Source of the DNA: Naegleria gruberi
Lineage: Eukaryota
Assembly (NCBI GenBank): GCA_000004985.1
Contig: GG738857.1
Reading direction: 5' to 3' (one strand)
Length of the DNA stretch: 64,000 nt
Every line of letters begins with the position of its first letter. The first letter of the stretch is position 1. Made by a program: the position numbers and the translations under genes. Under the pieces are notes generated by a model, which was given only the letters and a program-made list of their open reading frames with translations, did not search any database and was not told the origin of the DNA. Positions 11,314-56,500 of the stretch are shown here, one piece after another.

Positions 11314-12236
11314 NNNNNNNNNNNNNNNNNNNNNNNNNNNNNNNNNNNNNNNNNNNNNNNNNNNNNNNNNNNNNNNNNNNNNNNNNNNNNNNNNNNNNNN
11401 NNNNNNNNNNNNNNNNNNNNNNNNNNNNNNNNNNNNNNNNNNNNNNNNNNNNNNNNNNNNNNNNNNNNNNNNNNNNNNNNNNNNNNNNNNNNNNNNNNNN
11501 NNNNNNNNNNNNNNNNNNNNNNNNNNNNNNNNNNNNNNNNNNNNNNNNNNNNNNNNNNNNNNNNNNNNNNNNNNNNNNNNNNNNNNNNNNNNNNNNNNNN
11601 NNNNNNNNNNNNNNNNNNNNNNNNNNNNNNNNNNNNNNNNNNNNNNNNNNNNNNNNNNNNNNNNNNNNNNNNNNNNNNNNNNNNNNNNNNNNNNNNNNNN
11701 NNNNNNNNNNNNNNNNNNNNNNNNNNNNNNNNNNNNNNNNNNNNNNNNNNNNNNNNNNNNNNNNNNNNNNNNNNNNNNNNNNNNNNNNNNNNNNNNNNNN
11801 NNNNNNNNNNNNNNNNNNNNNNNNNNNNNNNNNNNNNNNNNNNNNNNNNNNNNNNNNNNNNNNNNNNNNNNNNNNNNNNNNNNNNNNNNNNNNNNNNNNN
11901 NNNNNNNNNNNNNNNNNNNNNNNNNNNNNNNNNNNNNNNNNNNNNNNNNNNNNNNNNNNNNNNNNNNNNNNNNNNNNNNNNNNNNNNNNNNNNNNNNNNN
12001 NNNNNNNNNNNNNNNNNNNNNNNNNNNNNNNNNNNNNNNNNNNNNNNNNNNNNNNNNNNNNNNNNNNNNNNNNNNNNNNNNNNNNNNNNNNNNNNNNNNN
12101 NNNNNNNNNNNNNNNNNNNNNNNNNNNNNNNNNNNNNNNNNNNNNNNNNNNNNNNNNNNNNNNNNNNNNNNNNNNNNNNNNNNNNNNNNNNNNNNNNNNN
12201 NNNNNNNNNNNNNNNNNNNNNNNNNNNNNNNNNNNN
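11314..12236. other. Assembly gap (923 N)
   Basis: n run. The ORF-track entries translated as X across this span are artefacts. Confidence 0.99.
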
Positions 12237-14510: not shown

Positions 14511-16724
14511 TTACATGACCAAACACTTGTCCTTATTATTTGGTCCTGTGGCTACGTGAAGTGTATCACCAAAGTTGAAGACATACTTGACGAAACTGTT
14601 CCAATCGATGGTTCTGGCTACTTTTCCAAATTTGTTGCACTTGTGGTACTGTTGGACAATGGCTTGTTCTAGTGCCTTATTATTGGTAATGTTTTCTCCA
14701 GTTTCACTGCTCACTTCAACATAGATTGGAGGAACAGAGCTGTAGATAAATTTGTTCTTGATGATATCTTCCACTTGTTCCTTAATATAAATGTGTTCAG
14801 CAACATCGTCCATAATATCTAACTTGTTACCACAAATAATGATAGGTATTTGTGAGAGTTCGAGAAAATGTTTCCTGTTGAGAATTTGATCAATAATCTT
14901 TTGAGTGTATGGGAGAGTTTGTTCTGAATTAGTCAAATCAAAAAGAAGGATGAATAAATCAAAATGACTAATATTGTAATCTAAAAGTATATCAGATACA
15001 TCTTGTCCAGGTGTATCAAAAATATCAATACTATAAGTTTCATTATCAATAGTTATCAAATCATCCTCTGGGTTATGCTCAAAGAATTCGTCATAGTTTC
15101 TGTGAGCAAATTTCATTGAGAGCATACTTTTACCTGTTGTCTTGTCTCCCATGATTGCTACCCTGATGATTCGAGATTGAGATTCTGTTGAGAACTTGTC
15201 ATTTTCCAAATATTCCTCTTCCTCAATTTGTTCCTCACTTTTTCTGAATGTTTTGTACATGGTTTCATAATCGAGAGTATTATTGGAGCTGTATGTACGT
15301 CTGTGAGATACTCGTGAAGGAGTGGCAGTTAAGCCGCCTGCACCACCTCTTTGTGGTGTAGTTGGAATGGAGCCCATTGATGTATTATGAGAGGGAGTTG
15401 GTGGAAAATTAAAGCTGTCATGAGGGAGCAATAGTAAATTTGAATTTGATGATGAATTGCTCAATCCTCGGTCTCTTGTAGTATCTGATAATTGATCAAG
15501 TGATACTCTGCCTGAATATTCTGTAAGTTCTTCGTTACTATTGCAATCGGTAGAAGTAAGGTTAGTGAGTGTGTTGGTATTATTATTTACAAAACTTCCA
15601 TTTCTTGATGGAGTTCTTGGAGAAGCTAAAGAACCAAAATTGGCACTACTTGGATAATCGAAACTATTCGTCACATTGAATGATTGAGATCTGCCGTGGC
15701 GTACTCTGGATGGATGTTTCCTCTTTCCTTTTTCAATTTCTGTATTTCTGTACAAATACCATGCGTGATTAATTTTTGAAAACAAACCCTTATAGTCTGT
15801 TGGATTGGATTGTGAAATATTGTCACTGATTGATTGTCTGTGGAAGTAATCAGTGTTTTTCAGAGCTGTCAGTGAGATTGCTTTATCAGGTTTCTTATCT
15901 GGCATTTGCTCACTTATGTGTTTCAGCTCGGTAACGTAATTTCTAATATCTCTGAGAATGAGCCTATTGGTATCCTCTGATGTCATCCACAAAAACTTTA
16001 AATGTAAAACATCTGCATAAAAGATTGGTGAAAAGTGCCTTCTCACAACAAAAAAGAAATCCTTATTGACAAGCTCCAAGCTATGAATGACATCTCTCAT
16101 AACAGTCACACAGTCAATCAATCCTATCATACCCTTTCCATATATTTTAGAAGGACGACGAGCTCTTCTACTGGAAGAATGCGACGTAGTATTTACACTA
16201 AGCAAATTCATTGCTGATTGAAAAATGTTATTCACCATACCCTTGCTTTCTGCAACATCCACTCTATCCGAAATGATTGGAATTAAAAACAAGAGAATGT
16301 GTTTAGTAATTTCTCTATTCCACATGATTTTTGTACTATGTCCAAATCCAAAATTAAATAAATTCTTCCTAACTGATCCTCCTTGAACATTTCCACGATC
16401 AATAGAAGTTCTTATATCGGATGAACGATCAATACTCGTTCTAGAAACTGCATTAGGTGGTGTTTTTAAAGGTGATGCTCCTTTTAAATTAGGTGTTGCT
16501 GGTGATATATTTTCATTAATATTATTGTTGGCCGTAGTGGCAAAAGTTATTGATGTTGTAGAAGGAAGAATTGATGATGATTTTGATGGTGTTTTACTCT
16601 CCTTTTCGGGTGGCGAAGCAATACTAACTGTTATCAGTGTATTAGAAGAATCGGATGTATTCTTGTTCTTATTTGTGTCCGACACTGATGATGATGAGGA
16701 TGTTGTTGATTGTTTACTCATCAC
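14511..16724 (-). CDS. Ras-superfamily small GTPase domain protein with a roughly 450-aa Ser/Thr/Asn-rich N-terminal extension
   Basis: C-terminal G-domain motifs: G1 IMGDKTTGKS, G3 DTPGQ, G4 GNKLD. 737-aa intact ORF. Confidence 0.6.
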   Translation of the reverse strand: MMSKQSTTSSSSSVSDTNKNKNTSDSSNTLITVSIASPPEKESKTPSKSSSILPSTTSITFATTANNNINENISPATPNLKGASPLKTPPNAVSRTSIDRSSDIRTSIDRGNVQGGSVRKNLFNFGFGHSTKIMWNREITKHILLFLIPIISDRVDVAESKGMVNNIFQSAMNLLSVNTTSHSSSRRARRPSKIYGKGMIGLIDCVTVMRDVIHSLELVNKDFFFVVRRHFSPIFYADVLHLKFLWMTSEDTNRLILRDIRNYVTELKHISEQMPDKKPDKAISLTALKNTDYFHRQSISDNISQSNPTDYKGLFSKINHAWYLYRNTEIEKGKRKHPSRVRHGRSQSFNVTNSFDYPSSANFGSLASPRTPSRNGSFVNNNTNTLTNLTSTDCNSNEELTEYSGRVSLDQLSDTTRDRGLSNSSSNSNLLLLPHDSFNFPPTPSHNTSMGSIPTTPQRGGAGGLTATPSRVSHRRTYSSNNTLDYETMYKTFRKSEEQIEEEEYLENDKFSTESQSRIIRVAIMGDKTTGKSMLSMKFAHRNYDEFFEHNPEDDLITIDNETYSIDIFDTPGQDVSDILLDYNISHFDLFILLFDLTNSEQTLPYTQKIIDQILNRKHFLELSQIPIIICGNKLDIMDDVAEHIYIKEQVEDIIKNKFIYSSVPPIYVEVSSETGENITNNKALEQAIVQQYHKCNKFGKVARTIDWNSFVKYVFNFGDTLHVATGPNNKDKCLVM

Positions 16725-16922
16725 GAATTTTTTTTTTAATTTAATTCAAAAAGACCATTTTTACTTTTAGTTAACGGTACAATTTTTGCGAGACAGGCAA
16801 CGTTTGCTTGCTTGAAAAAACAATATTAAGGGCGGGAAATCTTGAATAACTTTGCAAAACCAATTCATTTATTTAAAATTAAGGAATAGGCAAGCTTTTA
16901 AAAAAAAATCAACAATATCCCC

Positions 16923-17878
16923 GTGCGGATTTTTTCATTTTCGTTGAACGAGGATATGAAGAACGTTAATACAGCAATTGTGTTACGAGGACTCCTTCAT
17001 AATAATTGTTTCGGAGTGCTGAAGGGAAGGAATAGAATGGGAATCACGAGGAGAGGAGGATATAATCCCTTCGGAATTCAATTTTTGGTAGTATTCTTAA
17101 TAATTACGATTTATGTTACCTCGACTTGGAAGGAAACAGTTTTCTGCAGAGAACAAGTTAATTACCCTGCCCAGCAACATCAAAAGCTTGTGGAAAGTTT
17201 GTTGAATATTGTAACCTCTCCCAGAGAGAGAAACATATCGGAGACATTTTCCCTCTTGTCTCACAATTATTATTTAAAGGTTTACGGTTCTGTGAAGGAT
17301 TCATCAATTAGCTTTTCAGGCTCGTACAAAGGACCAAAAGCTTGGGAATTGTTTTACAAACAGTTGAGTAAGGTTTTCAATTTGAATAAGTATGAATTTA
17401 AGGAATACACATTCATGGCTGGTCCTACTGGTCAAGTGAATCAATCGAGCGTTGTTCAGTTATACGATATTCATCATACAATTTATCAGAGCCTTAAGGT
17501 TTCAATAAGTGAGATGATTTATTTCGAAAGTGATCCTCTCAATAATGTAATCACTGAAACTCATTTGTTTTGTGACACCAATCACTTGGCAAACGTTCTT
17601 TCAGTTGACAGTGGAAAGACAGACACTGAAACTTTCTTTGTTGTTGGAGCTGGATTAATTGGCATGCTAATCGGATCAGGTAGGTCAATTTCACGTATTT
17701 TATTTCCTAACTGGATCTATTATTGCTTTAAATGATCTTGTCAAAAGCCATTGCAACAACTGCCATTCTTCTTTGTCAAGATTTGAGAAGGAGAATAAAA
17801 CAAGCGGAAAAGGATAGGATGAGAAAGGTTACCCTCATGAACAATTCATTTACCGAGCCGCCAATGTTATTGAGATGA
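16923..17878 (+). CDS. Single-pass membrane protein of unknown function with 2 exons (16923-17679, 17748-17878). The first Met may instead be the one at about 17037.
   Basis: Donor GTAGGT at 17680 and acceptor AAAG at 17747, phase 1. The joined sequence gives a TM helix FFVVGAGLIGMLIGSAIATTAILLC followed by a basic tail QDLRRRIKQAEKDRMRK and a TGA stop. Confidence 0.5.
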
Positions 17879-18316: not shown

Positions 18317-18828
18317 ATGGTTTCCGATAGTCACTTCCACTCCTCATCCTCCCAGCAGGATTTCCAACAAGTTGTGCAACAATACAAGTTTACCATAGAA
18401 GCAATTTTCGATAACCAAGAAGCAAGAGCTTTGTTTAGAAGCTTTTTGAAGAAGGATTTGAATGAAGGTATGTTGTGATGTTTAGTTTTATTGTTTATTA
18501 ATTACAAATTCTTTACAAATAGAACCATTCCTTTTCTATGAATCTGTTGAAAAGTATAACAAGACAAGACTTGATAAGAATAGATTCGAATTGGCTAGTG
18601 AAATAATAGACAAGTTTATGGTTGTGGGAGCTCAACACGAATTGAATTTGTCAACTACACTGAGGAATGACATTTTGAAATCATGGAAACAAATATACGA
18701 AAAGAATAAGGATTTACCTGACTCTGATTTGATAACGTGTCCAAAAGATTTATTCACTAAGGCCCAAGACATAATTTTCATTGAACTCAAACAAGATAAT
18801 TTCCCAAGATTTGTAAATTCAGAAACTT
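18317..18828 (+). CDS. RGS (regulator of G-protein signalling) domain protein with 2 exons (18317-18467, 18523-...). The 3' part is lost in the assembly gap.
   Basis: MVSDSHFHSSSSQQDFQQVVQQYKFTIEAIFDNQEARALFRSFLKKDLNE|EPFLFYESVEKYNK... matches the RGS-domain consensus (F..FL..E.SEEnL.F...v..Y). Intron GTATGT...AAATAG, 55 nt. Confidence 0.6.
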
Positions 18829-19993
18829 NNNNNNNNNNNNNNNNNNNNNNNNNNNNNNNNNNNNNNNNNNNNNNNNNNNNNNNNNNNNNNNNNNNNNNNN
18901 NNNNNNNNNNNNNNNNNNNNNNNNNNNNNNNNNNNNNNNNNNNNNNNNNNNNNNNNNNNNNNNNNNNNNNNNNNNNNNNNNNNNNNNNNNNNNNNNNNNN
19001 NNNNNNNNNNNNNNNNNNNNNNNNNNNNNNNNNNNNNNNNNNNNNNNNNNNNNNNNNNNNNNNNNNNNNNNNNNNNNNNNNNNNNNNNNNNNNNNNNNNN
19101 NNNNNNNNNNNNNNNNNNNNNNNNNNNNNNNNNNNNNNNNNNNNNNNNNNNNNNNNNNNNNNNNNNNNNNNNNNNNNNNNNNNNNNNNNNNNNNNNNNNN
19201 NNNNNNNNNNNNNNNNNNNNNNNNNNNNNNNNNNNNNNNNNNNNNNNNNNNNNNNNNNNNNNNNNNNNNNNNNNNNNNNNNNNNNNNNNNNNNNNNNNNN
19301 NNNNNNNNNNNNNNNNNNNNNNNNNNNNNNNNNNNNNNNNNNNNNNNNNNNNNNNNNNNNNNNNNNNNNNNNNNNNNNNNNNNNNNNNNNNNNNNNNNNN
19401 NNNNNNNNNNNNNNNNNNNNNNNNNNNNNNNNNNNNNNNNNNNNNNNNNNNNNNNNNNNNNNNNNNNNNNNNNNNNNNNNNNNNNNNNNNNNNNNNNNNN
19501 NNNNNNNNNNNNNNNNNNNNNNNNNNNNNNNNNNNNNNNNNNNNNNNNNNNNNNNNNNNNNNNNNNNNNNNNNNNNNNNNNNNNNNNNNNNNNNNNNNNN
19601 NNNNNNNNNNNNNNNNNNNNNNNNNNNNNNNNNNNNNNNNNNNNNNNNNNNNNNNNNNNNNNNNNNNNNNNNNNNNNNNNNNNNNNNNNNNNNNNNNNNN
19701 NNNNNNNNNNNNNNNNNNNNNNNNNNNNNNNNNNNNNNNNNNNNNNNNNNNNNNNNNNNNNNNNNNNNNNNNNNNNNNNNNNNNNNNNNNNNNNNNNNNN
19801 NNNNNNNNNNNNNNNNNNNNNNNNNNNNNNNNNNNNNNNNNNNNNNNNNNNNNNNNNNNNNNNNNNNNNNNNNNNNNNNNNNNNNNNNNNNNNNNNNNNN
19901 NNNNNNNNNNNNNNNNNNNNNNNNNNNNNNNNNNNNNNNNNNNNNNNNNNNNNNNNNNNNNNNNNNNNNNNNNNNNNNNNNNNNNNNNNNNNN
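18829..19993. other. Assembly gap (1165 N)
   Basis: n run. Confidence 0.99.
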
Positions 19994-20008
19994 TTGAATT
20001 ATTGTAAT

Positions 20009-20989
20009 TTACCACATTTCAGCCAGTCTGAAATTGCTTGCAAAGTAAGTTGTAATAAGACCTCCCCAAACATGTGGACCATAATAAGTAGATTGAATGT
20101 ACCACCTATCTGGATTCTTATAAGCAGCAGGAATATTATTTGCAGTGTCAGCAACAACTTGACGAAGTCTTGGCTTGACATCCTTAGAAAAGACAAGAGT
20201 TTGTCCCACAGTTGGATAGGTCAATTCATAGGAAGCAATCACATCATCATAACCCCATGTATTTGTAGTATTAGTGGCAGCTCCATTGAAAAACCAATTC
20301 TTATTTGGAACACGTGATGGACTAACTGAGGCATAATGCAAATTGAGTTGATAGAAAAGTGTCAAACTTGGAGCATCATAATTCTTCAACACAAATGAGG
20401 TAATGAAAGTAGCTTGAGTAATACATGAAGAAGCAACTTGTTGAATGTAATAGGGTCTTACATTTATGGTATGTAATAATTGCTTTCCATTATTGGCAAG
20501 TGGACCTTCAATTGCTGGAACGAAAGGGGCAGTATCATACGTATTGGAAGTGGTTGGTTCAGCAAATAAATTGGCTTCCACACCACAACCTAACAAATTA
20601 CCATTCAGGGCTAGCTCAATAGTATCATTTCCTGGAGTGAAAACAACACGAGAGCTTGGATTAGCTACAGAATATTGATTATTGAAAGCATTGAGTTCGT
20701 AAGCATTTTCCCATTGAGCAACATGCCAATTTGAAACACCAGGGGTTCCAGGAGTTTTCAAATTTCTATTGTAAACTTTGGCGCCCATCTTGTAACCTGT
20801 GGCTTTAGGTACAAGGTCATTGTAAGTGACAGCCAAAACCAAGACAACTTGATAGAGGAACACTGTTGTAAAGATTAAGAGAAATCTTGATGAATATTTG
20901 GATAACATTTTTTTTTTGAATGGAAATTTAGAGATCTTTAAAGCTGATGTTAAATAGCTTTTCGAAACTTGCCGAATCGTTCGTGTCAT
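20009..20989 (-). CDS. Secreted protein of unknown family, about 300 aa. The probable start is the internal Met of MLSKYSSRFLLIFTTVFLYQVVLVLA.
   Basis: Intact 326-aa ORF with an N-terminal signal peptide, and Gly/Asn/Trp-rich with no TM helix. No family recognised by eye. Confidence 0.5.
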   Translation of the reverse strand: MTRTIRQVSKSYLTSALKISKFPFKKKMLSKYSSRFLLIFTTVFLYQVVLVLAVTYNDLVPKATGYKMGAKVYNRNLKTPGTPGVSNWHVAQWENAYELNAFNNQYSVANPSSRVVFTPGNDTIELALNGNLLGCGVEANLFAEPTTSNTYDTAPFVPAIEGPLANNGKQLLHTINVRPYYIQQVASSCITQATFITSFVLKNYDAPSLTLFYQLNLHYASVSPSRVPNKNWFFNGAATNTTNTWGYDDVIASYELTYPTVGQTLVFSKDVKPRLRQVVADTANNIPAAYKNPDRWYIQSTYYGPHVWGGLITTYFASNFRLAEMW

Positions 20990-32743: not shown

Positions 32744-33994
32744 ATGTCTGCCGAACTTGTTTCGAATGGTGTTTTGAATCTATTCGAAACGTTAGCAAGC
32801 AACTCAACAATAACAAACACAACACACGAATCTCTTGCCAGCACCTTTCCTCAATATTCCCAAAACGTTGGTTCGATTGTTGTATCATGTGTTTTCATCT
32901 CATGCTATGCCATTGTTGTTGCCATCATGAGTGGTATTCTTATTCGATACAGGAAGGAAATGAAGAGAAACCAAATTCTAGTCTTCTTCTTGGTGTTTTG
33001 GTGCATAGGTCAACAAACTCTTGCATTGATTTTTCGACTTGCCTATAATGGGAGAGCCCTCTGGATAAACTTGACTTATTCAGACTATACCAAGATTGAA
33101 AATTTCAATCAATTACTAATTCCACTCTATGTATTCTCTGCCATAGAGAGTGTTGCTGTATATTTGCAGGGAGCTGTAATTATAGTCATTATTTGTTTCA
33201 TTTTGAATATCTTGTAAGTATTTTCTTCATTGATTCGAATATTTAATTTTGGAAATAGTTTGGACACAGCTCGTGTTGTTAACGCCATGACCCAAAAGGC
33301 CCACAAATTCATCAAATACTTCTTCAACATCATATCTACCCTATTCGCTGTCCTAATCTTCCTACTTGCCTTTGTCCACGTTGGAGTTGTCCTCGCCTCA
33401 AAAGTTGCCACAAATTTCAAAGCCAATGTCATTGCAATTCTCATCGTTATCTTTGTAATCTTTGCAGTTACAATCACGATTGAATCTATCATGTTTGTTT
33501 TTGTAGGAGTTCGTCTAATTCTCTTTGTACGAAAGAATTCTCTTGGAATTTCACAAGCTAGCTCAAATTTCCTTCAAAGACCAGAAGTCAAAATTGGAGC
33601 ATTGATTGTTGGCATGTTGATTAGTGCCTATTTTCAATTACTAGCTTCGATTGTTGCGATTATTACTACGAGTTTCAATCCAGTGTTGCATGTAATTGAT
33701 TATAGTTTGCAAGCTTTGGGAATTTTACTCTTTTCCATATTTGTACTATTAGTTTACAATCCACTAGTTTCGTATAACATGATGAATAATAAGAAGGATG
33801 GGAAAGTGATAGGAAATACTACAAGTGAAATGAAATCTGAAAGATCAACAAATAATTCGAAACGATCAAAAGGTCTTTCACAAATTCCAAATTCACCAAA
33901 ATCACCAGTGGTTGACATTGCTCTTGCTGATTGTGTTTCACCTTCTGCTACCACAACAACTTCTGTTGATCAATCTGTAGAAGAAGATAAATAA
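32744..33994 (+). CDS. Seven-transmembrane receptor-like protein (possible GPCR) with 2 exons (32744-33213, 33259-33994)
   Basis: ORFs 32744-33217 and 33230-33994 are in the same frame and separated by a 45-nt GTAAGT...AAATAG intron. The joined protein has 7 hydrophobic helices and a Ser-rich C-terminal tail. Confidence 0.55.
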
Positions 33995-34051: not shown

Positions 34052-37000
34052 TTAGGCATTGTAAATTTTCTCTAAACGATCAACAATTTCTTGAATATTA
34101 GGACGTGTAGAAGGAACGGGAGACCAACTTTGTCTAATTAATTCAGTCAAATCGAAAATTCTTTCGTACTCATCTGGAGAATCGAATTCCTTACACCATT
34201 CTTTGCATTCCTCCAAATCTGTGAATGGAATAATTGGTCTCAAATTATTTTCACAAATTCCCTTGTGAAGTTGATAGGAAGATTCAACATTGCTTGGTTC
34301 TTCTAATCTTAATTTTTGTAAAACTCGTGAGTTTCTACTCATGTATGGATCGGTACATTCGAATAGTACTTGCCAAATGATAATGGAGAAACTGTAAATG
34401 TCGATTGCTCTGGCATCTTCACCAAGTATATCGCTATTACTGGAAATCATTTCAGGACTTAAATAGTAACAGGTTCCTATTTGACTTGTGACAGAAGTTC
34501 TGTAATTGGATAACATCTTGCTGAGACCAAAATCACAAAGCTTACAAACTCCAAATCTGTCAATCAAAATATTGGCAGGTTTCAAATCTCTATGCAAAAT
34601 TGTTGGAGATAATGTATGAAGATAGAGAATTCCATTAGCAACATTTGTCAAAATTTCCAATTTTTGAGTGAGAGAATACTGAACTGATTGATTTTGCATT
34701 TCTGTTACTAAATTATCCAAACTCTTCTCCAAACACTCCATAGCAATGAATCTCTTTGTAGGACTCGAAGAAATTCCGTAAAATGTGATAATGTTCGGAT
34801 GTCTTAATTTCGAGAGAATGATAGCCTCCATGAGGAAATCCTTTTCAGAAATATTCATGTTGTTCATGTCAAATACCTTGACAGCAATAATGTTATTCTT
34901 CCAACGAGTTTGGAATACAGAACCAATTCCTCCTGAACCCAATCTCTTGATTGGTTTGTCCATGTTTAATTGTTCAATTGGAATAATGAATGAAGAATTG
35001 TCAGAGTTGTTAATGTCCATAAATTCAAAGGTTTCTCCAACTTCAGTTTGAGATAGTAATCTTTCGTCCAACATTTGATCCATTTCAATAATTTTCTTTT
35101 GCTTTCTATACTTGGAAAAGAAGATTACCATTGTTAACATGGAGAAACAAAGTAACAATAAAACAAATATACTAAATCCAACAATGGTTCCAATCAAAAC
35201 ACTGTTATGTTCACATTCCTTTCCAAAGCTATTACTGCATTGACAAATATCTGGAGCAACACACAAATTTCCATTGCATGCATCAGCTCCTGATTTTCCA
35301 AAGCAGGTGACCATTCTGCAATCTGTTCCAATATATCCATAGGAGCAGGAGCAAGTATCTGGTTTAAGACATGTTCCACTAGAATTGGAGCATACAGCCG
35401 AACTAGAACTTGAAATGCCAAAACAAACTGGATACTGACATTGATTTCCACTATATTGAGGGGGGCAAGAACAGGTATCACTATCTAAACATATTCCATT
35501 TCCGCTACATACTTTGGAATCCAAACTGGTCCACTCAAAACATTTTGGAATGCATCTAGTTTTCTCTGGATTAAGCACATAATTATTTTCACAGAATGGA
35601 ACTAGTTGTTTCACTACATTATTCAACGAGTCAGATACGAATATCTTTCCAGTATTATCCACAAATGATACGCCTTCTGGCTTTGAGAGAGGAACTTCCA
35701 CTGCTGTCAATGATGATTCAATAAGATAACTGGCAACAATATCGACAACATCAACTGTTCCGTTACCAGCCATTGAATAAATATATCTCTGGCCATTAAA
35801 ATTAAACACTCTTCGTAATCTTCCATTATTCTTATCACAAAAAACAAATTCTTCATAAGTTGGTGGAAGTAACATTATACATGTTGGTGAATTGATATCT
35901 GCATTGATGGCAAGACCATTATCTCCAGAAAATCCAATATTTCCAGTTCCACAAACTGTACTAATTGTTCCATCTTTGGAAGAAATCTTTCGAATTCTAT
36001 GATTGTTGGTATCGCTGAAATAGATATCTTCATTTAGGGGTGAAACTGCAATTCCAGATGGAAATGCCACAGTAGCACTTGTAGCTGGACCATTCTCTCC
36101 ATGGAATCCATAATCTCCAGTTCCTGCAATTGTACTAATAACTCCAGTCATTCCATCAATCTTTCTAATAATATTATTCAAATTATCTGTTATGTAAATG
36201 TTTCCACTTTTTGCTCTGACCATGCTTAGAGGAATAGCAGATGATTGATTGGCTGGAATATTATCACCAAAACCTCCAGAAATGGTTGTTAGTAAATCAT
36301 CCTTAATTGAGTACTTTCTAATCTTGTTATTCGACGTGTCAGCAATATAAATTACTCCATTTCTATAGTCCAATGCCTTTGGATATTTCAATTTGGCAGA
36401 TCTTCCTCGTGATGGTTCTGTTTCTTGAACATCATTGGCTCCACCAATAATCGTCTTGATTATTTTAGAATCTGCCCATCTTATTCTGCTATTGATAGTG
36501 TCAGCTATTGCGATTGGTTTTGGTAATGCACTAGCATACTGATTTTCGGATGAACTATCAGCAGTAGAAACAACAGAATATGGGTGAAAGAATTTTGCCA
36601 TTAATGGATCACCATTGTCACCACTGAAACCAGCTCCGAGTTGTGAGTCACCTGCAGTTACTGAGTACATCACTGGTCCATCACCATCACTAGTAAATCT
36701 CAATCTCTTAATTCGATTATTGTAAGTATCTGCTACATAAAATGCAAAACATTTATCACATCCGTGCACATCATGAGGTGTATTATAGTATCTACTATCA
36801 CTGCTTGCAACTCCCATTCCAGATATGCTAAGGATAGGGAAAATGGAAGATTCGTTCAGAGTGGCATTGAATTTGATAAATCTAATTCTGTGATTTAAAC
36901 TGTCAGCAAAGAGTATACCTTGTTGTTTTACAGGAATGTTAACTATGGTCATTCCTCTTGGCTAATTAATTATCAATTGATTGGTTGGAAAAAATTGTTT

Positions 37001-39044
37001 CATTTCAACTTACCTCATTCAACAGAGATTGTGTTGCATCATTAGAATTTCCATTATATCCAAATTGATCTGGAATACCAGCTAGTATTGTTATTACATT
37101 GGTTTCTAGATTGATTTTTTTGATGGCATGTCTTCCAGTTTCTGAAAATATTAAATATCTCGCTCCAGTGCTCGTCACATAATAAGCAAGACCAGTTGGT
37201 TTCTTCACATTCTTAACAATTACCTTGACATTATTAGTATTATCAATGAGCTTGATATTGTTATTGTATGTGTCAGATACGAAAATACCCATATCTGTGG
37301 CAACAATTCCCTCTGGCTGATTGTAGGTGACTGAGGAGGCATTCATATAAGTGGGCATTCTTGCAGTATTGTTAGGTCTCAAAGCATTTCCCACCACCAA
37401 TGATATTTGTCTTGCTTTTGAATAAATATTTTGGGAAACTCTGATAATGGCATCACTGTAAACTCCACTTTGTTCATTCAAAATGTAATATTCAATTGTG
37501 TCACCATTGACCACTCCAACACTAAGAGACATTGGTTTGGATGACAGGGAATAGTTTAAAGAAGAATCAATATAAGTGGAAGACTCCAAATTGACAAATC
37601 CAGGATTAAGAGTACGAACAGTTCGAGTTGTCAAATCATAATATCTAACTGCTCCAAAGTTTGATTCACTAATAAATAGTACCTTCTCCAATTTGTTTGT
37701 ATTCTCATTTAAATGATAATCGAAAGTAAGACCAGTTGGCTGTCTCAATGGGAACTTTATCCCTTTCATCCCATCCACTCTCGGTATTTGATCGCCATTT
37801 GAAAATACTGGAGAAATCATCTTGGTTTCCAAATTGAGAATTTTGATATTTTTCGAGTCTACCATTAAAACAGACTTTCCATCTGGAGAAATTATAAAAT
37901 TAGAAGAAAAAACAAAATGACAATCAAATGCTTGAGTTATTCCATCTTTGCATTCTTCTGCTGAGGAATCACTTTTTCCTGCCAGTATTTCCAGCTTTAC
38001 GGATCCATCTGTATTATTGATGGTCAACCTTTTCAATAAGCTCGAAGTATCAGTGAAATAAACCATATCCAATTCGTTCATAGTATAAGCTGATAAATAA
38101 GAGGGACAACTATAATCATATTCATCATCATAAGGACAAGTGGACATTGAAACTGGCAGAAGTGGAAATTCATGCCCATACATTGTTGTAATATTACCAT
38201 TCTGGAGAATCTTTCTGAACCTATTGGATCCCCTTTCTGAAATGTAAATCTCATTCTTGTCATTTAGTGAAATACTGTTAGGGGACAATAATGTTGAACT
38301 AATTGCAGGAAATTCGCTATCTAGATAAACTCCAGCACCTCCACAAATTCTATAAACAGTACCATTTTGAATCTTTCTCAGAATATTCAAATCCAGAACG
38401 ATAACATTCGCCTCTTCCACAGAATTCACCACTTTCGGATAAACAACCATATCACTCAATGAAAGGAATTTGATTTCACTTGCTGGAATCACATCTGGGG
38501 CCGCAAAATTCAAATTACCTGCCAGAATTCCAGCAATATGGTCAATAATTCCTGTCTTGGTTCGAATCCTCCTAACAGAAAACAAATCCACCAAATAAAT
38601 CACATCATACAAGTTTCCACTACTTTCGTCCTTTTCTGCAACCACATACAAATGATTCACAAATATAAACGTTGCATTTTTCACTGGTCCTCCATTTCCC
38701 TCAATACCTCTACCAGGAGATTCACTTCCTGTAATAAATTCCTGTTGTCCAGTTACAAAATCCAATTTAGCAATGACAACCTGATTCACGACATAATAAA
38801 ACGTATTTTCATATTGAACGGAAGGAGCTAACCCAACAAGTGAAAAGGTTTTTGTTTCTAATTTTGATGGGTAATCTAATTTTCCAATAATTGATTCTGC
38901 TTGATATTTAACTTGTGATTTTAAGAATCGGATAGTTTCGTTCAAATTACACGTCGAAAAGTGAGAGAAAATCATCAGAAGGCTGATGAATAAAAACATT
39001 CGGCATAGTGAGAATCGATTCTGCCGTAAACATTGTGTTGACAT
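34052..39044 (-). CDS. Receptor-like protein kinase of about 1645 aa with 2 exons (39044-37014, 36961-34052). It has a signal peptide, two large NHL-repeat (beta-propeller) ectodomains, an EGF-like Cys-rich module, a TM helix and a C-terminal Ser/Thr-type kinase.
   Basis: Signal peptide MFLFISLLMIFSHFSTC. At least 8 NHL-like repeats (N..IRK/IRF motifs). Cys-rich segment CSGNGICLDSDTCSCPPQYSGNQC.... TM helix IGTIVGFSIFVLLLLCFSMLTMVIFF. Kinase motifs HRDLKPANILID, DFGLS and SPE. A 52-nt intron (GTAAGT...AATTAG, phase 0) joins ORFs 37005-39044 and 34052-36952. Confidence 0.7.
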
Positions 39045-39911
39045 TTTTTTTAAAATGTTCCTGCGGAGTTTATTGTAATGAAACTCTTTATTTCAATGTT
39101 ATTGGAAAATGGAAGATTAAATGGAAAGATTATTGGAAGTTGGATGGAGTAAGTTGTGATCTATTGGAAAGATACTTGTTTGATTGGCGGAAAACAACTC
39201 CTTGATGGACGGGAGCATTATTCTAAAGGGTTTAGTTTCGTTTAGGATATTTAAAGATTGTTGTGAATGAGTGATCTTTTGTGATGTATTCATGACAGTG
39301 TATTGTTGGGTAATTGGTGTGTGATTCTTTTTGGTGACCTTTCGAATAGAAGTTGAAGGTTGTGAATTTTCTTTCGTAAAGAATAGAACAGATTCATAGC
39401 TCTGTATTGAAACTTTCTTCTTTTTAATGACGCTGAACATTGATTTGTTTGGTGTGTACACAACTCGATCAAAATTATAGTTGTGGTCACCCACCATTTT
39501 ACTTTCGTTTCTATTGACTTTATTCGAAAGCTCACTGTGTTTAGTTTGTTGCTTGTCCATTTTTTCTGTGTGTGTTTATTCAAAATCCCAAGTCACCAAG
39601 AATCAATCTGAAAACACACAACAAATCTGTGGAAGAAATAAATCCATTTCCAGATGAAAAAATTTACCAAAATCTAAGAAAAATTAAAAAATACAAAATT
39701 GTAAATTGAAGACTACTTTAAAAGCCATGAAAATTGATGAGAGATTCTTTGTGAAATGATGATCTTACATCTTCGAATACAAAAAGATGGATTCGAATAA
39801 GATTATTGGAAAGTAAAAACTTTCTTGTAATGGAAAGAAATTGACCTATTTGTAAAGATAAATTCTTTATTCAAACTTTACAATAAAATTAATTGCGTTA
39901 TTCGAAACTAT

Positions 39912-46710: not shown

Positions 46711-46939
46711 ATGGCCGATCACAAAATGGTCTGCAAATTGGGTTTGTGTTTTGAGATGCGAGATTTAAAATTATTTATTAAATGTGTGATGATTACAGGC
46801 TGATAGGAAATATGTGTTGGAAGCTGTTAAACAAAATGGGTTGGCACTTGAAAATGCCGATGAATCTGGAAGCTGTTAAACAAAATGGATTGGCAATTGA
46901 ATTTGCTGATTCATCATTAAAAAAGATAGAGAAATTGTA
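46711..46939 (+). pseudogene. Disrupted 5' region of DUF4116-kinase copy 1. The mini-exon 1 homologue is out of phase, a DUF4116 repeat unit is truncated, and a poly-A run carries a 1-nt deletion.
   Basis: Compared with copy 2 (59873 onward), this region shows three frame disruptions. The repeat-encoding frame switches from frame 2 to frame 0 and back to frame 2 around 46860 and 46905. Confidence 0.45.
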
Positions 46940-49699
46940 TTGGAATCTGTTAAACAAAATGGATATGCATTTAAATATGCCGATGAGTTATTGAAAAAAG
47001 ATGAAGAGTTTATATTGGAAGTTGTTAAACAAGATGGATTGGCAATTAAACATGCTGATTCATCATTACAAAAAGATAGAGAAATTGTATTGGAAGCTGT
47101 TAAACAAAATGTATATGCACTTAAATATGCAGATTCATCATTGAAAAAAGATAGAGAAATTATATTGAAATCTGTTAAGAAAAATGGATTGACACTTGAA
47201 TTTACTGATTCATCATTGAAGAAAGATAGAGAAATTGTATCGGAAGCTGTTAAACAACATGGATTGGCAATTGAGTTTGCTGATTCATCATTTAAAAAAG
47301 ATAGAGAAATTGTATTGGAAGCTGTTAAGCAAAATGTGTATGCAATTGAATTTGCTGATTCATCATTGAAGAAAGATAGACAATTTGTACTAGAAGCTGT
47401 TACGAAAAATGGATTAGTACTTGAATATGCTGATTCATCATTGAAGAAAGATAGAGAATTTGTATTAGAATCTGTTACGAAAAATGGATATGCATTTCAA
47501 TATGCTGTTTCATCATTTAAAAAAGATAGAGAAATTGTATTGGAAGCTGTTAAACAAAATGGAGCAGCGCTTAAATATGCTGATGAATCAGTTAAGGGAG
47601 ACAGAGAAATTGTATTGGAAGCTGTTAAACAAAATGGATTGGCATTTAAATATATTTATTCATCATTGAAAAAAAATAGAGAAATTATATTGGAAGCTGT
47701 TAAACAAAATGGATCAGCACTTAAACATGCTGATTCATTTTTGAAGAAAGATAGAGAAATTGTATCGGAAGCTGTTAAACAAAATGGATTGGCACTTCAG
47801 TTTGCTGATTCATCATTTAAAAAAGATAGAGAAATTGTATTGGAATCTGTTAAAAAAAATGGATCAGCACTTGAATATGCTGATTCATCATTTAAAAAAG
47901 ATAGAGAATTTATTTATTTGCTATTTAAATTGAACAAAGAAAATGCAAGAAACTTCTCACCATCTATATCCAAAACCATTGAAGAATGCTTAAATATTCA
48001 GAGAAAGCTGTCAAGCAATATAACTGAACAATACTCCAAAATATTTATGGATGAAAAGGATTTATATTATGCTATTGAATTAACAAGTCTCTTTAATCCA
48101 ACACCAAAAGGTACAATATTCAATTTCAATTCTATCTATACACCAATATTTATTGAAAAATTGATTATTTTTCAAATATTGAAACAAATGAACCATTCAG
48201 AATTGTCTAATGATATTATTGCTCTTATTGATTTACAAAGTACCAAAGCTAACTATTATTTATATTGTTTCAGATTGGACAAATTTCTTGAAGATAATCC
48301 CTGTCAATCAACAAGAATGAAAGATTTGAAGAATATTGTGGAACAAGTTGCAACAAACTTTGAAACGTCATTTTATACAAAACAGGAAATTAATGAAATT
48401 ATGATTTTTGCCAACAAGTGGTTTGAAAATGAGCAAACATTTGAAAATTACAAACAAATAATTTGTAAATATAATGAGCTGAGAGGAGATTTATCAAAAG
48501 TATTCAAATCTCTTAATTATTTCTATAATTATTTCAAAAATGATTATGATTTCATTTCAGTATTAGGATATGGAGGTGAAGGTGTTGCATTCAAAGTATT
48601 TCATAAAAGTAGTAAATCATTAAGGGCTTTAAAATTGAAATATGACCCAGAGGAATCTGAAGAATCAACAAAAGAAACCATTAATTTATTGAAAAGAACA
48701 GACATTGAAGGAAAGATCAAATGTTTTGATTGTGAAATTATTCAAAATCATTTATATTCAGTGATGGAACTTGGAGAGGAATCATTATCAAATTACATTT
48801 CAAGAAATAATGAAAGTGAAATTTATAGAAATGGATTCATTATTAAGGAAAAACTAATTGAAATTCTTGATATATTTATCAAAGTATTGAACTCAGTTCA
48901 ATCAATTCATGATCACAATATTTTACACAGAGATTTAGATCCTCAAAATATTGTCAAAGTTCAAGATTTATACAAAATTATTGATTTTGAAACATCAAGA
49001 GTGATCAAGACAGGTAATTCAATTACAATTGCTCGTGGAAAGTTTGCATACATGTCTCCTGAAGTTTCACATGATAATTATTCTGATGATTTATTGAAAA
49101 GTGGTAATGATGAAAAGCTTGCTCACAATGTTGGACAAATTACCATTTCATGTGATATATTTTCATTGGGATGTATTTTGTTGAAATTATTAACCAATTG
49201 TCCTTTGCAACTATGTTCAACATTTCTGAATGATTCAGATGTCTCTAAATATAATGATAATTACTTGTATTTTAGTGGACATGGAAAATATTTCTATACA
49301 GTTGTGACAACAACAGAGGGAGAAATGAAATTACATTATGCAATTGAAAAACTAATCAATGAAACAATTAATCCAGATTTAGGAGTGAATAACATATTGA
49401 TTAGAAGCATTATTAGCATGATTCAAAGAGATTCATCAAAAAGATTGGATTGTTATTCTCACAAGTTAACAATTGAGAATATTTTGAAATTTTTGAAAGG
49501 AGAAATCAAAGATATCACTTTCAATATTGAAAAACAAGTTGGAGAATTGAAGAAAATATCACCATTAAGAAGTTACTCTCAACTTGTAGAGGAAAATACC
49601 AAACTATTAGAAAGAATTAAATTATTGGAAGAGAACTCTTTATTGGAACGAATTAAAATGTTGGAAGAGGAAATAATAAATCTAAAAACAGACCAATAA
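46940..49699 (+). CDS. DUF4116-repeat protein with a C-terminal atypical protein kinase domain, copy 1. The long ORF is intact from the TTG at 46940, but no in-frame upstream ATG is available.
   Basis: About 11 tandem 29-aa DUF4116-type repeats (LEAVKQNGLALxYADSSLKKDREIV). The kinase part has GYGGEGVAFKV, HRDLDPQNIV, DFETSR and YMSPEV, followed by a C-terminal coiled coil. Confidence 0.6.
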   Translation: MESVKQNGYAFKYADELLKKDEEFILEVVKQDGLAIKHADSSLQKDREIVLEAVKQNVYALKYADSSLKKDREIILKSVKKNGLTLEFTDSSLKKDREIVSEAVKQHGLAIEFADSSFKKDREIVLEAVKQNVYAIEFADSSLKKDRQFVLEAVTKNGLVLEYADSSLKKDREFVLESVTKNGYAFQYAVSSFKKDREIVLEAVKQNGAALKYADESVKGDREIVLEAVKQNGLAFKYIYSSLKKNREIILEAVKQNGSALKHADSFLKKDREIVSEAVKQNGLALQFADSSFKKDREIVLESVKKNGSALEYADSSFKKDREFIYLLFKLNKENARNFSPSISKTIEECLNIQRKLSSNITEQYSKIFMDEKDLYYAIELTSLFNPTPKGTIFNFNSIYTPIFIEKLIIFQILKQMNHSELSNDIIALIDLQSTKANYYLYCFRLDKFLEDNPCQSTRMKDLKNIVEQVATNFETSFYTKQEINEIMIFANKWFENEQTFENYKQIICKYNELRGDLSKVFKSLNYFYNYFKNDYDFISVLGYGGEGVAFKVFHKSSKSLRALKLKYDPEESEESTKETINLLKRTDIEGKIKCFDCEIIQNHLYSVMELGEESLSNYISRNNESEIYRNGFIIKEKLIEILDIFIKVLNSVQSIHDHNILHRDLDPQNIVKVQDLYKIIDFETSRVIKTGNSITIARGKFAYMSPEVSHDNYSDDLLKSGNDEKLAHNVGQITISCDIFSLGCILLKLLTNCPLQLCSTFLNDSDVSKYNDNYLYFSGHGKYFYTVVTTTEGEMKLHYAIEKLINETINPDLGVNNILIRSIISMIQRDSSKRLDCYSHKLTIENILKFLKGEIKDITFNIEKQVGELKKISPLRSYSQLVEENTKLLERIKLLEENSLLERIKMLEEEIINLKTDQ

Positions 49700-50392: not shown

Positions 50393-51865
50393 ATGCCAAG
50401 TTTCATCAAGAGATTATCGTTACGAAATTCATTTCAACAACGTCAATCCATTCACCAAGATCGTAGAAGAACGATCCGAGCCATTCCCTTCTTTCAAGAT
50501 TTTAAAATTGCCATCATTGGAGATGAATGTGTTGGAAAATCGAATATTGCAATGAGATGTGCTGGAAAGGAGACGTTTGTGCCAGAACATGAACCAACGA
50601 TTGAAGATGAGTATAATTGTAAGGTACAGTTTATGTTTAGGTTGCCAGCACCTTTGGTGGAAGAAATAGTTTCGAATGGTGGTGAAGGAGATTCGAATGA
50701 ATTAATGAGAAGTAATCCCAAAGGTGATATTTATGGATATAAACAATTGGCACATGATTTGGAATTAATACCAATGGAATTGAGAAATTATATGAAATTG
50801 GATAATACTTTGCTATCAATTATTCAACAAAAAAGAGAAAAGGAAGAGGAAATGAAAAAAGCACTTGAGGAGAAACAAAAGAAAATGTTTAGTTTATTCA
50901 AGAAGAAATCAACAACGAGTGATTCTCCACAAAAATCTTCTCATGAGCATGCTGGAAATAATCAATCAGGAGAGGATGGAGATTTTGGAAGAGTAATCAC
51001 TGAGGAAGAGGACATTGATGATTATGTGGATGAATTACTTTCGGATGTGGTTTATAATTTCGAGCAGGACATTATTTGTAGAGTGACCATTGTGGATACG
51101 AGTGGGAGATCGGAAGTGAGAAAGGAAGCAACTGATTTGTCTTCAGTGGATGGATACATGTTGGTTTTTGATATGAATAATAAGGCATCATTTGCCAAGA
51201 TTCAGAATTATATTGATGAGTGTAAATTTGCCTACTATGAAAATCCTGCAAGGAAACATTCGGATGCAGCTGCTTCACACAGTTCGAGTAGTGCTCGATT
51301 GTCCTCTGCAAGTAATAATAGTTCAGCAACAATGAATTCAACCTCCTCAGCAAGTGCTGCCTCTTCCAATGTAAATAGTTCTAAACCATCGACAATTGAT
51401 AATCCTCCAATGGTCCTTATAATGAGTAAATGCGATCAGAAACCATCAGCCCTCAAGACCATTAATGCAGAGTATGGCTATGCTCTTGGAGATACTCATC
51501 ATTTTCCATTCTTTGTCACTAGTGCATGTGAAAATTTGAATATCCAAGAAGCATTAGAAGGTCTCCTGAGTGAAATTATCAAGAAGAACATTGAGGAAGG
51601 AGTTTACGAAACTCAAAACAAATCAATGCCAACACCACTACCATCTGCTGATGAAACTTTAAGCAAGACCAATAGTAGAAACTTTAAATTTGAGAATCAA
51701 AATATCAGTATCAGTAGCAATGCCAGTGATTACACTCCTGAATTGTTAACGTTCAGTGTTGGAAATGGAGTTGTTCCACAGAGTCCTCCTGAGAAGAAGA
51801 TTGTTCGTCAGAGTGTCTCTGCAACTCTGAGAAAGTATGTCGTTCAACAATTTAAAAAGAAATAA
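50393..51865 (+). CDS. Highly divergent Ras-like GTPase of 490 aa with two large insertions and non-canonical catalytic residues
   Basis: KIAIIGDECVGKSNIAMRCAGKETFVPEHEPTIEDEYNCKVQF aligns with Ras residues 5-45. A roughly 150-aa insertion follows. Then CRVTIVDTSGRSE (DTAGQ replaced by DTSGR), a roughly 60-aa Ser-rich insertion, PMVLIMSKCDQ (NKCD replaced by SKCD) and TSAC. Confidence 0.6.
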   Translation: MPSFIKRLSLRNSFQQRQSIHQDRRRTIRAIPFFQDFKIAIIGDECVGKSNIAMRCAGKETFVPEHEPTIEDEYNCKVQFMFRLPAPLVEEIVSNGGEGDSNELMRSNPKGDIYGYKQLAHDLELIPMELRNYMKLDNTLLSIIQQKREKEEEMKKALEEKQKKMFSLFKKKSTTSDSPQKSSHEHAGNNQSGEDGDFGRVITEEEDIDDYVDELLSDVVYNFEQDIICRVTIVDTSGRSEVRKEATDLSSVDGYMLVFDMNNKASFAKIQNYIDECKFAYYENPARKHSDAAASHSSSSARLSSASNNSSATMNSTSSASAASSNVNSSKPSTIDNPPMVLIMSKCDQKPSALKTINAEYGYALGDTHHFPFFVTSACENLNIQEALEGLLSEIIKKNIEEGVYETQNKSMPTPLPSADETLSKTNSRNFKFENQNISISSNASDYTPELLTFSVGNGVVPQSPPEKKIVRQSVSATLRKYVVQQFKKK

Positions 51866-53513: not shown

Positions 53514-56500
53514 ATGACAAAACTTGTTTCTTGCCTTGCCACGGCCATCAAACTCGGAGTGGTGAGCACGTTTGTGTGCTCTTTTGTTTTGTTTCATATT
53601 TATTTCTTTTTGGAGAGATCTCCACCAGCTAATACAAAGCATTTTGATGATATGAATACTAATCCTTTAAATTTTGCTGATTTGAATTTATTTTCCATTC
53701 ATGATGAGAGTAGTATTGTGAAGGAAGGTTCATCGTCATCACCCGGAAAGAATAGAAGAAGACTTGTTCAACCAAAGAGCTTGAGAAAAATTGCTCTTGA
53801 TGAAATCGGAACTGTAAATTCAACCAAAGTTGTGAATGATGGTATGTAATATTTGTACAATAATTTTCAATTAATAATTAATAATTAACAATAATATAAT
53901 ATACAATGCAATATTCATCAATGAATAACAATAATTTTGGAATACTTGGAAAAATCTTCATCATGTGGATTAACAACAGATGACGAAAAAACATATTATA
54001 CTATTTTCCAAATTCATGGAACTCCTGGATCTAGACGATGGAGGTATCCAGTTGATCATCACTTTGTGAGGACTTTCGGAGGAGACAAAAAGTTGAGAAT
54101 TCTCAGTCTTGATAGACCTGGTATTGGTCAATCTACTCCAATAATATCTAGTATTGACTCGGAAGGTAATCCTGTCTATAATTTGGAACCTTTCAATGTG
54201 GATTATTATGAAGCTAGTGCTTTGGACCTTTTATATGTTGTGAGAAAGTTGAGATTAAAGCACTTTTCACTCTTTGCTTATTCTCAAGGTGCTGCTCATG
54301 CTACAATGCTTTCACACTATTTGGAACAATTAAAGAAGAGAGAACGTGGTGAAAAGGTAACTCATGCTCACTTGAAGAGCACTGAAAGATTCCACAATGA
54401 CTTGATGACCAAGATTTTATTGTCAAAGGATTCCGAAAAGTATTGGACTTTTGAAAATGGAGTTTCAAACTATACATCATCTACTGAATGGTCATGGAAA
54501 GATGTTACCATCGACAGAGTTGTCTTGATGGCACCACAAGGTTTCTATTCAGAAAAGGTCAGACAAGCTCTCTTGAAAGAGCAAGACATGACCATTCCTG
54601 AGCACAAGAGATGGTCTTCAAACCTTCATCAAATTTATTCTTTCCACAATTATCAACCACCACTCGGAACTAATATTGTTCATGCTGTATACAAGATGGT
54701 TTCACAATTGGGATTTATCACTAATATCAAATATTGGGAAGAAAATATGAAATTCATGCTTGATCCTTTGGGAAGAGATTCATTCATTTTCCATGATGAA
54801 GCTACTGGATGGAAGAAGGCTTTTAACAATACCATGATTGATACCTACAGATTTACTACCATGACTTTCCTTGTAGAAGTTTATAATAGTTATTATTTCA
54901 CTGAAAATTATGGACCTAACTTTGATATTTCCTTGAAGAATATTCCAACATGGATTTTGAAAGCTGAGGATGATATTCTTGTTCCAATTGAAGCTTTTAA
55001 TACCTTTGTTGAAAAGGTTTGCACCAATAAGGAAACTTGTAATGTCACTGTTGCTTCCAACACTACCCATTTCCAAATTTTCAAGAATTATTACACACAA
55101 TCTATTCAACACCTTGTGAAGGGAGTTTTTGGAGAAAGTGTCAGCCTTAGAAAGCCAAGAAGAAAGATTATTGTTATTGGTAGTGGTCTTGCTGGCTTGA
55201 CAGCTACTCTCGAATCTGCCTACACCTACGATCAAGATGTCGTTCTCATTGAAAAGGAACCTAGACTTGGAGGAAACAGTGCCAAGGCAACCAGTGGTAT
55301 GAATGCTATCCAAACAACAACACAAAGAAACGTTCTCGTCTTTGATTCATATACTCACTTTTGGAATGATACTATCAAGTCTTTCACAGGAGGAAAGGTC
55401 TTGTCTACCCTCAAGGAAGCTAGAAGAATCATTAGAAATCCAAAGAATAAGAAGAAGGTTGAAGGAGAGGAAAATTTAATTACAGAAAATTCTTGGAGAA
55501 TTTTGGAAACTCTTGTCAAGGATTCCAAGCCAGCCCTCCAATTCTTACAATCATTTGATGTGAAAATGGATGTTGTTTCCCAATGTGGAGGCCACTCAAA
55601 GCCAAGAACTCACAGAAGCATTAACAAGAGTGACAAACCAATTAACATTGGAAGTGATATTATTTCCAAGCTCTCTGCTTTTATTAGAGAAAAATTGGCT
55701 GAGCGTGTTGTCATCAAGACTGAACATCATGCCATTCAATTAATTTCTGAAGAAAATGATCTTGGAGAAACCATTGTCAAGGGTGTCAAGGTTTTGAACA
55801 TTAAGGAAAATACTACTGAAACAATTATGGGAGATTCTATCATTTTGGCAGCTGGTGGTTATGGTCAAGATAGAGATGGTTATTTGAAGCAATTCGCTCC
55901 ACACTCTGTCAATTTACCATCAACTAATGGTTTGTGGGCAACAGGTGATGGTATAAAGATGGCTGTCAGAGATGTAAACGCATCCTTGATTGATATGGGA
56001 GAAATTCAAATTCACCCTACTGCCTTTGTTGATCCAGCCAATCCTACTGCAATGACATTAATTCTCGCTCCAGAATCATTGAGAGGTTATGGTGCTATTA
56101 TTGTCAATCAAGAGGGTAAGAGATTTGTCAATGAATTGGGTACAAGAGATGAAGTCAGTGATGCCATCTTTGAAAATTGTGGAAGGAAGGAAATTATCCT
56201 CACGTTACTGCCTACATGATTATGAATGAATTTGTTATGAAATCATTTGGTGAAAGCTTGACCTCCTTCTATGCCAAGAAGGGTCTCATTCGTAAATATG
56301 AAAACTTTGAAGATTTGTGTCAAAAGGAAGAATTGAACATGTCTGCCAACTTTTGTGCCAACCTCGAAGATACCATTATTGATTATGATTATTCAGTCGA
56401 TTATAGAAGATCAGATCCTAACTATAAGGATTCATTTGGAAAGACAGTTTTCCCATCTAAATTCAATTTGGAAAAGAGTAAGGAAACTACTCCATTCTTT

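Follow-up and report, generated by a model that had tools for sequence, protein, structure and literature searches.

A probable two-exon gene of Naegleria gruberi for a receptor-like kinase with a proposed NHL/EGF ectodomain

Gene structure at the locus

We analyzed a 64,000-nt window of nuclear DNA from Naegleria gruberi NEG-M (assembly GCA_000004985.1, contig GG738857.1), and within it one minus-strand locus at 34052-39044. The window is gene-dense and ~33% GC, and neighboring open reading frames (ORFs) exactly match the N. gruberi proteins EFC46868, EFC46878 and EFC46767 of a 573-kb scaffold. A preliminary description, made from the sequence, had proposed a single two-exon gene here for a very large receptor-like kinase, comprising a signal peptide, NHL-type repeats in two propeller-sized blocks, an EGF-like Cys-rich module, one transmembrane (TM) helix and a Ser/Thr-type kinase. 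Its limits agree exactly with the ORF listing, which gives two long minus-strand ORFs, 39044..37005 (679 amino acids, aa) and 36952..34052 (966 aa). Because stops are expected to make up ~7% of codons at ~33% GC, an estimate from base composition, neither ORF can be put down to chance. Joined through a short intron, they give the following arrangement.

37014..39044, minus strand: exon 1, codons 1-677, start ATG at 39044; putative signal peptide, putative propeller 1 and predicted blades 1-4 of propeller 2
36962..37013, minus strand: intron, 52 nt, GTAAGT...TTAATTAG, phase 0, canonical ends, in-frame TGA inside
34052..36961, minus strand: exon 2, codons 678-1646, stop at 34052-34054; predicted blades 5 and 6 of propeller 2 and all of propeller 3, then EGF modules, TM helix and kinase
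38952..39044, minus strand: signal-peptide-like N-terminus by hydropathy, aa 1-31, with basic n-region, MFLFISLLMIF core and ...STC/NL
37785..38867, minus strand: putative propeller 1, aa ~60-420, very divergent NHL-like blades
36593..37772, minus strand: predicted propeller 2, aa ~425-800, six blades; coordinates span the intron
35558..36595, minus strand: predicted propeller 3, aa ~800-1145, six clear NHL blades from aa 812, 868, 914, 976, 1033 and 1102
35213..35593, minus strand: Cys-rich stalk, aa 1134-1260, from Cys positions
35117..35200, minus strand: TM helix by hydropathy, aa 1265-1292, followed by the stop-transfer sequence SKYRKQKK
34082..34951, minus strand: protein kinase domain, aa 1348-1637, Pfam Pkinase
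34055..34963, minus strand: the annotated part, a 303-aa 'predicted protein' (EFC46875.1 / XP_002679619.1 / NAEGRDRAFT_32030 / D2V8X1)

In-silico splicing yields a coding sequence of 4941 nt and a protein of 1646 aa. The junction reads ...TTGAATGAG/GTAAGT...TTAATTAG/CCAAGAGGAATG..., with slashes at the splice sites. Several features argue that this is one gene. The intron, with its canonical ends, is in phase, and two codons past the exon 1 donor lies an in-frame stop. The exon 2 ORF begins 3 codons past a perfect acceptor site. It has no signal peptide of its own, yet by hydropathy ~585 aa of Cys-rich ectodomain precede its TM helix; the NHL/EGF part of exon 2 could presumably not be translocated without exon 1. 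The NHL repeat starting at aa 675, recognized by a hidden Markov model (HMM) built from the protein's own repeats, spans the junction, with 'LNE' in exon 1 and 'PRGMTIVN...ILFADSLNHRIRFI' in exon 2, and in the predicted structure propeller 2 likewise crosses it. Finally, a single uninterrupted ORF, that of exon 2, links NHL blades and EGF modules with the TM helix and the kinase. We therefore consider it quite probable, from the sequence and the structure models, that the locus is a single two-exon gene, as the preliminary description had it, for a type I single-pass receptor-like kinase whose proposed NHL/EGF ectodomain would signal to a TKL-like kinase.

Public annotation

Very little of this protein is in the public record. 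An exhaustive search of representative proteins gave a match of 100% identity to the 303-aa EFC46875, which corresponds to aa 1344-1646, the kinase domain. The flanking minus-strand models are EFC46874 (30887-31696) and EFC46876 (39117-39560), whose accessions are consecutive with it. Exact look-up found neither the spliced 1646-aa protein nor either ORF in the protein collection; the top 150 representative matches included no other high-identity protein for the exon 2 ectodomain, and a look-up of contigs encoding the neighboring gene had none on record. Since the record contains only the kinase fragment, 34964-39044, which would encode the rest of the protein from the signal peptide through all the propellers and the EGF stalk to the TM helix, is unannotated. 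This amounts to ~4 kb of coding sequence.

That GenBank has only EFC46875 between EFC46874 and EFC46876 could be taken to mean that separate genes lie here, either one for a secreted NHL-like protein of 679 aa (exon 1 read on to the TGA) with another gene downstream, or one for a small soluble 303-aa kinase with the upstream ORF untranslated. We think this very unlikely. The 966-codon ORF, in DNA of 33% GC, runs through NHL, EGF, TM and kinase segments without a stop, and for this reason the 303-aa model is clearly truncated. Homologs (see below) encode NHL, EGF, TM and kinase as one protein. The arrangement at the splice junction, with an NHL blade completed across an in-phase intron and a secretory-type ectodomain that begins at an acceptor site and lacks a signal peptide, also speaks against separate genes and for the single receptor-kinase gene.

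Correcting the reference model on this basis would lengthen the protein from 303 to 1646 aa and add the ~4 kb of coding DNA. The same shortfall may affect other genes. A search with the kinase domain alone returned full-length relatives from N. lovaniensis (several) and N. fowleri (one), and no N. gruberi full-length receptor kinase was among its matches; this hints that in the 2010 annotation further receptor kinases of N. gruberi may have truncated models.

Two neighbors lie close to the gene. Upstream, the 147-aa 'predicted protein' EFC46876 (NAEGRDRAFT_65314; 39117-39560, minus strand) ends 72 nt before the receptor-kinase start codon. Downstream, two plus-strand ORFs in the same frame, 32744-33217 and 33230-33994, are separated by one stop codon and encode a multi-pass membrane protein with no exact match in the protein collection. 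Probably the two form a single gene whose short intron keeps the frame; this gene would lie tail-to-tail with the receptor kinase, 57 nt from the stop codon of the latter.

The ectodomain

The ectodomain contains ~1100 aa of NHL-type blades. The repeats pass the Pfam cutoffs both for NHL (PF01436; 2e-21, 75.1 bits, cutoff 20) and for TEN_NHL (PF25021; 1e-12, 48.1 bits, cutoff 27.1), and in the models they fold as NHL propellers. Failure at such profiles had been named beforehand as an outcome that would overturn the NHL assignment. The repeat HMM found ten clear repeats, starting at aa 574, 617, 675, 736, 812, 868, 914, 976, 1033 and 1102, with independent E-values from 4e-9 to 2e-22, and weaker ones at aa 156, 220, 252 and 433. 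By sequence, then, clear NHL character is confined to the ten C-terminal blades, aa 574-1145. An AlphaFold2 model of aa 33-1232 agrees with this division: aa 573-1150 form ten four-stranded blades at high confidence (predicted local distance difference test, pLDDT, ~80-97), and the N-terminal half is of low confidence, with islands of blades. Within the modeled structure there is a closed six-bladed propeller of four-stranded blades.

The preliminary description counted two propeller-sized blocks. We now think ~18 blades in three blocks the more likely reading, judging from the TEN_NHL match, whose best stretch, aa 148-291, falls in the region of propeller 1, from the HMM and hhalign matches, and from the blade counts of related Naegleria NHL-EGF proteins. 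The propeller units were counted back from the EGF stalk. Against an NHL-blade profile, hhalign gave 94% at aa 252-290 in the propeller 1 region and one further, marginal blade; with one convincing and one marginal blade, propeller 1 is put forward as a putative, very divergent six-bladed NHL propeller.

Searching the Protein Data Bank (PDB) by sequence and with Foldseek placed a bacterial teneurin-like protein (9IFO; sequence match E = 5e-53), SOQ1 and NHLRC2 at the top. The next matches were the tandem propeller-EGF receptors LRP4, LRP6 and LRP2, and teneurins. Six-bladed propellers also occur in enzymes, and matches to the lactonase, strictosidine-synthase and PAL families raise the idea of an extracellular enzyme, anchored in the membrane and fused to a kinase. 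This we regard as extremely improbable, given that those family matches fall under their curated cutoffs and reflect the common six-bladed fold, and that the best matches in sequence and structure are the non-enzymatic NHL domains of the teneurin-like protein, SOQ1, NHLRC2, TRIM proteins and PknD.

The segments flanking the propellers are those of a type I single-pass receptor kinase, in the order that had been described: a hydrophobic N-terminus, the NHL and EGF ectodomain, one TM helix with basic residues after it, and a C-terminal kinase. The N-terminal hydrophobic segment spans aa 11-31 by hydropathy and is predicted to be a cleavable signal peptide. The single strong TM segment of the protein is aa 1265-1292. 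Between propellers and membrane, the stalk has a small C1134-C1147 loop and, from the Cys pattern, three 6-Cys EGF modules (aa 1151-1185, 1190-1225 and 1230-1260), where one Cys-rich module had been noted. Pfam matches to EGF profiles cover aa 1159-1264; EGF_2 is just over its cutoff (22.3 bits, cutoff 22.1), and EGF_TEN and EGF_Teneurin are under theirs.

The kinase domain

The Pfam Pkinase match (1e-43, 150 bits) covers aa 1348-1637. The catalytic set is complete, with G-loop GSGGIGSV, K1372, E1389, HRDLKPAN (D1469), DFG (D1487) and SPE, so by its motifs the domain appears to be an intact, active kinase of the Ser/Thr superfamily. A C-lobe insert around NLRPIIPF is specific to the family described below. 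Among solved kinases the nearest is CTR1 (7e-32), followed by ZAK, TNNI3K, TAK1, RIPK2 and BRAF; a Src-Abl ancestor ranks third among these matches. We describe the domain as a TKL-like Ser/Thr kinase, in keeping with the Ser/Thr assignment and, provisionally, with the suggestion of TKL in the preliminary description. We also considered a receptor tyrosine kinase. Tyrosine kinases have the catalytic loop HRDLAARN or HRDLRAAN; the loop here, HRDLKPAN, rules that class out.

Two further kinase-like stretches were seen in the window. The paralogous plus-strand genes at 46940-49699 and 59962-62574 encode arrays of 25-aa DUF4116 repeats, with 75-nt tandem arrays at 46867-47908 and 59961-60772. The first has a Pkinase domain by Pfam, and in the second the stretch 61630-62070 resembles the receptor kinase domain; each is ~30% identical to that domain over 150 aa.

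Relatives and a provisional kinase family

In word-index searches, whether the query was the full protein or aa 900-1646, bacterial NHL-repeat proteins dominated the matches. The searches had an apparent length window of ~0.55-1.75 times the query, and missed both the 303-aa fragment and the N. lovaniensis homolog. Homologs were recovered once the ectodomain had been masked by X and the kinase domain was searched by itself, and 41 sequences were aligned. The matches of this search came in the order P0252; Naegleria receptor kinases with other ectodomains; Tritrichomonas kinases; P0397.

P0252 is N. lovaniensis C9374_001816 (KAG2387484.1 / XP_044551476.1), 1239 aa, automatically annotated as 'protein kinase domain-containing protein'. 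Among the 150 best representatives, the kinase was present in this protein and the 303-aa fragment only. P0252 has a signal peptide, ~12 NHL blades (9 detected), one EGF module, a TM helix and a kinase, and is 46% identical to the N. gruberi protein in the kinase domain and 31% over 799 aa. The two share the EGF junction of the last blade, 'C-E-x-x-Y...C-x-P-x-CF...VCSGNG-C', the acidic juxtamembrane segment and the kinase C-lobe insert. They differ in size of ectodomain, ~12 blades (two propellers) and one EGF module in N. lovaniensis against ~18 and three in N. gruberi. Near P0252, on PYSW02000013.1, two further NHL or NHL-EGF_TEN genes (1-728 and 15619-17571) lie within ~10 kb, which suggests local clustering of the ectodomain family.

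P0397, an NHL and kinase protein on a 4-kb environmental contig, has the same arrangement of last blade, EGF, TM helix, juxtamembrane segment and kinase, including the junction that is also conserved in P0252. Its ORF is broken by a GTGAGT intron. From this intron and the common junction, TM and juxtamembrane motif, we take P0397 to be eukaryotic and of the same family. The layout was thus found in Naegleria and a Naegleria-like environmental eukaryote only, and the earlier idea of a lineage-specific surface receptor fits. A metagenome scan with the kinase-family alignment returned generic kinases at 24-33% identity, none with NHL in the same ORF.

Other matches keep the kinase and change the ectodomain. 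P0393, P0394, P0396, P0401 and P0403 are receptor kinases of N. lovaniensis or N. fowleri with an ectodomain of Chlam_PMP or beta-helix type or without a Pfam match. In the alignment the C-lobe insert 'xLRPxIPF...W...CW..P..RP' is common to P0252, P0393, P0394, P0396 and P0401. Sequence comparison thus points to a provisional Naegleria receptor-kinase family, with a common kinase insert after the TM helix, to which the N. gruberi protein would belong. Members share kinase, C-lobe insert and juxtamembrane segment and differ in ectodomain (NHL-EGF; PMP or beta-helix). Because one kinase occurs with different ectodomains, the family appears to have arisen by ectodomain shuffling.

The converse also occurs. 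In some NHL-EGF surface proteins of Naegleria the kinase is missing (P0265, P0322, P0338 and P0347); these carry 6 or ~17-18 blades. These, together with the resemblance of the ectodomain to teneurin NHL/EGF modules and LRP propeller-EGF arrays, could be read as favoring a mainly adhesive role, in which the propellers capture particles (prey, substrate or other cells) much as in teneurins, LRPs and nidogen, and the kinase is secondary. We hold this unlikely as the main role. The kinase keeps every catalytic residue, and its conservation, with that of the juxtamembrane segment, across members whose ectodomains are unrelated points to signaling as the selected function. Adhesive and signaling roles are in any case compatible.

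Proposed mode of action

If the locus encodes a signaling receptor as proposed, the signal peptide would send ~1230 aa outside the cell, where three six-bladed NHL propellers, of which the first is very divergent, would sit on three EGF modules that serve as a stalk. An extracellular partner, perhaps a constituent of bacterial prey, the substrate or another cell, would bind the propeller faces and change the oligomeric state or geometry of the receptor. The cytoplasmic TKL-like Ser/Thr kinase would then trans-autophosphorylate and signal inward. By analogy with other single-pass receptor kinases, such a sequence of ligand binding, change of oligomeric state and trans-autophosphorylation is likely.

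Several points weigh against the receptor-kinase interpretation. The reference annotation models the 303-aa kinase and nothing more of the protein, and the one-gene, two-exon model has sequence logic and structure prediction as its whole basis. The cleavable signal peptide is judged from hydropathy. In propeller 1, pLDDT is mostly <50, with blade-like islands, and two or three blades at most are detectable by sequence; moreover, because AlphaFold is apt to close a ring from whichever six NHL blades follow one another, the register of the propellers is our reckoning. The ligand, activation mechanism and downstream pathway are conjectural throughout. P0252 is probably a paralog, because its genomic neighborhood differs: the two loci had no common neighbors in a synteny comparison. 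No N. fowleri counterpart was found, in limited searches.

A wider evolutionary scenario can be sketched, though we regard it as improbable in its entirety. Naegleria (Heterolobosea) would have built its own receptor-kinase repertoire independently and used bacterial/teneurin-type NHL-EGF ectodomains, possibly acquired from bacteria, as pattern-recognition sensors for bacterial prey or other amoebae. It would have done so convergently with plant receptor-like kinase (RLK) immunity and with PknD, and the repertoire would be largely hidden by truncated N. gruberi gene models.

To our knowledge, surface receptors have hardly been studied in this excavate lineage. The gene would document a eukaryotic receptor kinase with a stacked NHL-propeller sensor, in parallel to bacterial PknD, and its family would be a clean example from that lineage of ectodomain shuffling on a conserved kinase. 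With relatives in N. lovaniensis and the family represented in N. fowleri, it is also a possible entry point to the sensing of prey or host surfaces.

Other features of the window

Large Ras/Roc-type GTPase genes with long extra regions lie at 14511-16724 (minus strand) and 50393-51865 (plus strand; Pfam Ras 1e-16 and 1e-18, respectively). An ORF at 53937-56219 (plus strand) has alpha/beta-hydrolase and FAD_binding_2 domains and may represent either a fusion or two genes run together. The very long ORFs 9179-12388 (plus strand) and 11160-14174 (minus strand) overlap on opposite strands, which suggests a low-complexity or repeat-coding region. An apparent AT-rich block at 18.8-20 kb was rejected as a real feature: a run of N at 18830-19995 marks an assembly gap and accounts for both the 14% GC bin and the spurious long ORFs 18591-19997 and 18819-20015.

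Comparison with known systems

No paper on this gene emerged from literature searches, and neither Naegleria NHL with kinase nor Naegleria transmembrane kinases gave anything specific. The preliminary description had called an NHL propeller unusual as the sensor of a receptor kinase. The combination is indeed uncommon, and it has a bacterial precedent in Mycobacterium tuberculosis PknD, in which an NHL propeller is known as a kinase sensor (PMC1262709, PMC6107167). PknD (PDB 1RWI/1RWL) is likewise a receptor Ser/Thr kinase with this sensor fold. Its order, kinase-TM-NHL, is the reverse of that in N. gruberi, which excludes the latter from the PknD type; in addition PknD has one compact propeller and no EGF module, and its kinase is of the bacterial PknB type, a lineage unrelated to that of the TKL-like kinase here. 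NHL propeller and kinase were fused independently in the two proteins, whose architectures are not homologous.

Teneurins and bacterial teneurin-like proteins (PDB 9IFO/9PT5) have blades of the same 'TEN_NHL' type as the N. gruberi protein, and it is the NHL domain of the latter group that gave the best PDB sequence match. In teneurins, as here, EGF modules are membrane-proximal and the NHL propeller distal, and the teneurin superfold consists of FN-plug, NHL and YD/RHS shell (PMC13018210). The N. gruberi protein differs in being type I rather than type II, in having a predicted three propellers rather than one, and in its cytoplasmic kinase. Teneurin membership was ruled out, there being no RHS/YD (PF05593), plug or toxin match at E<=1 in Pfam. 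Tandem propeller-EGF ectodomains are also found in LDLR, LRP4, LRP5/6 and HHIP, but with YWTD blades and EGF after each propeller. These proteins have no kinase; LRP4 signals via the separate kinase MuSK.

In overall plan there are parallels in the transmembrane kinases (TMKs) of Entamoeba and other amoebae, the LRR-TMKs of oomycetes and the RLKs of plants, which like the N. gruberi protein are type I with a TKL-like Ser/Thr kinase. Their ectodomains are Cys-rich, LRR or of other kinds. In such protist and plant receptor kinases, lineage-specific ectodomains are recombined with a conserved kinase; the main text of the protist TMK survey mentions neither NHL nor Naegleria (PMC10463195). The NHL-EGF-TM-kinase protein is a eukaryotic variant of a receptor type with bacterial precedent, not a new kind of system.

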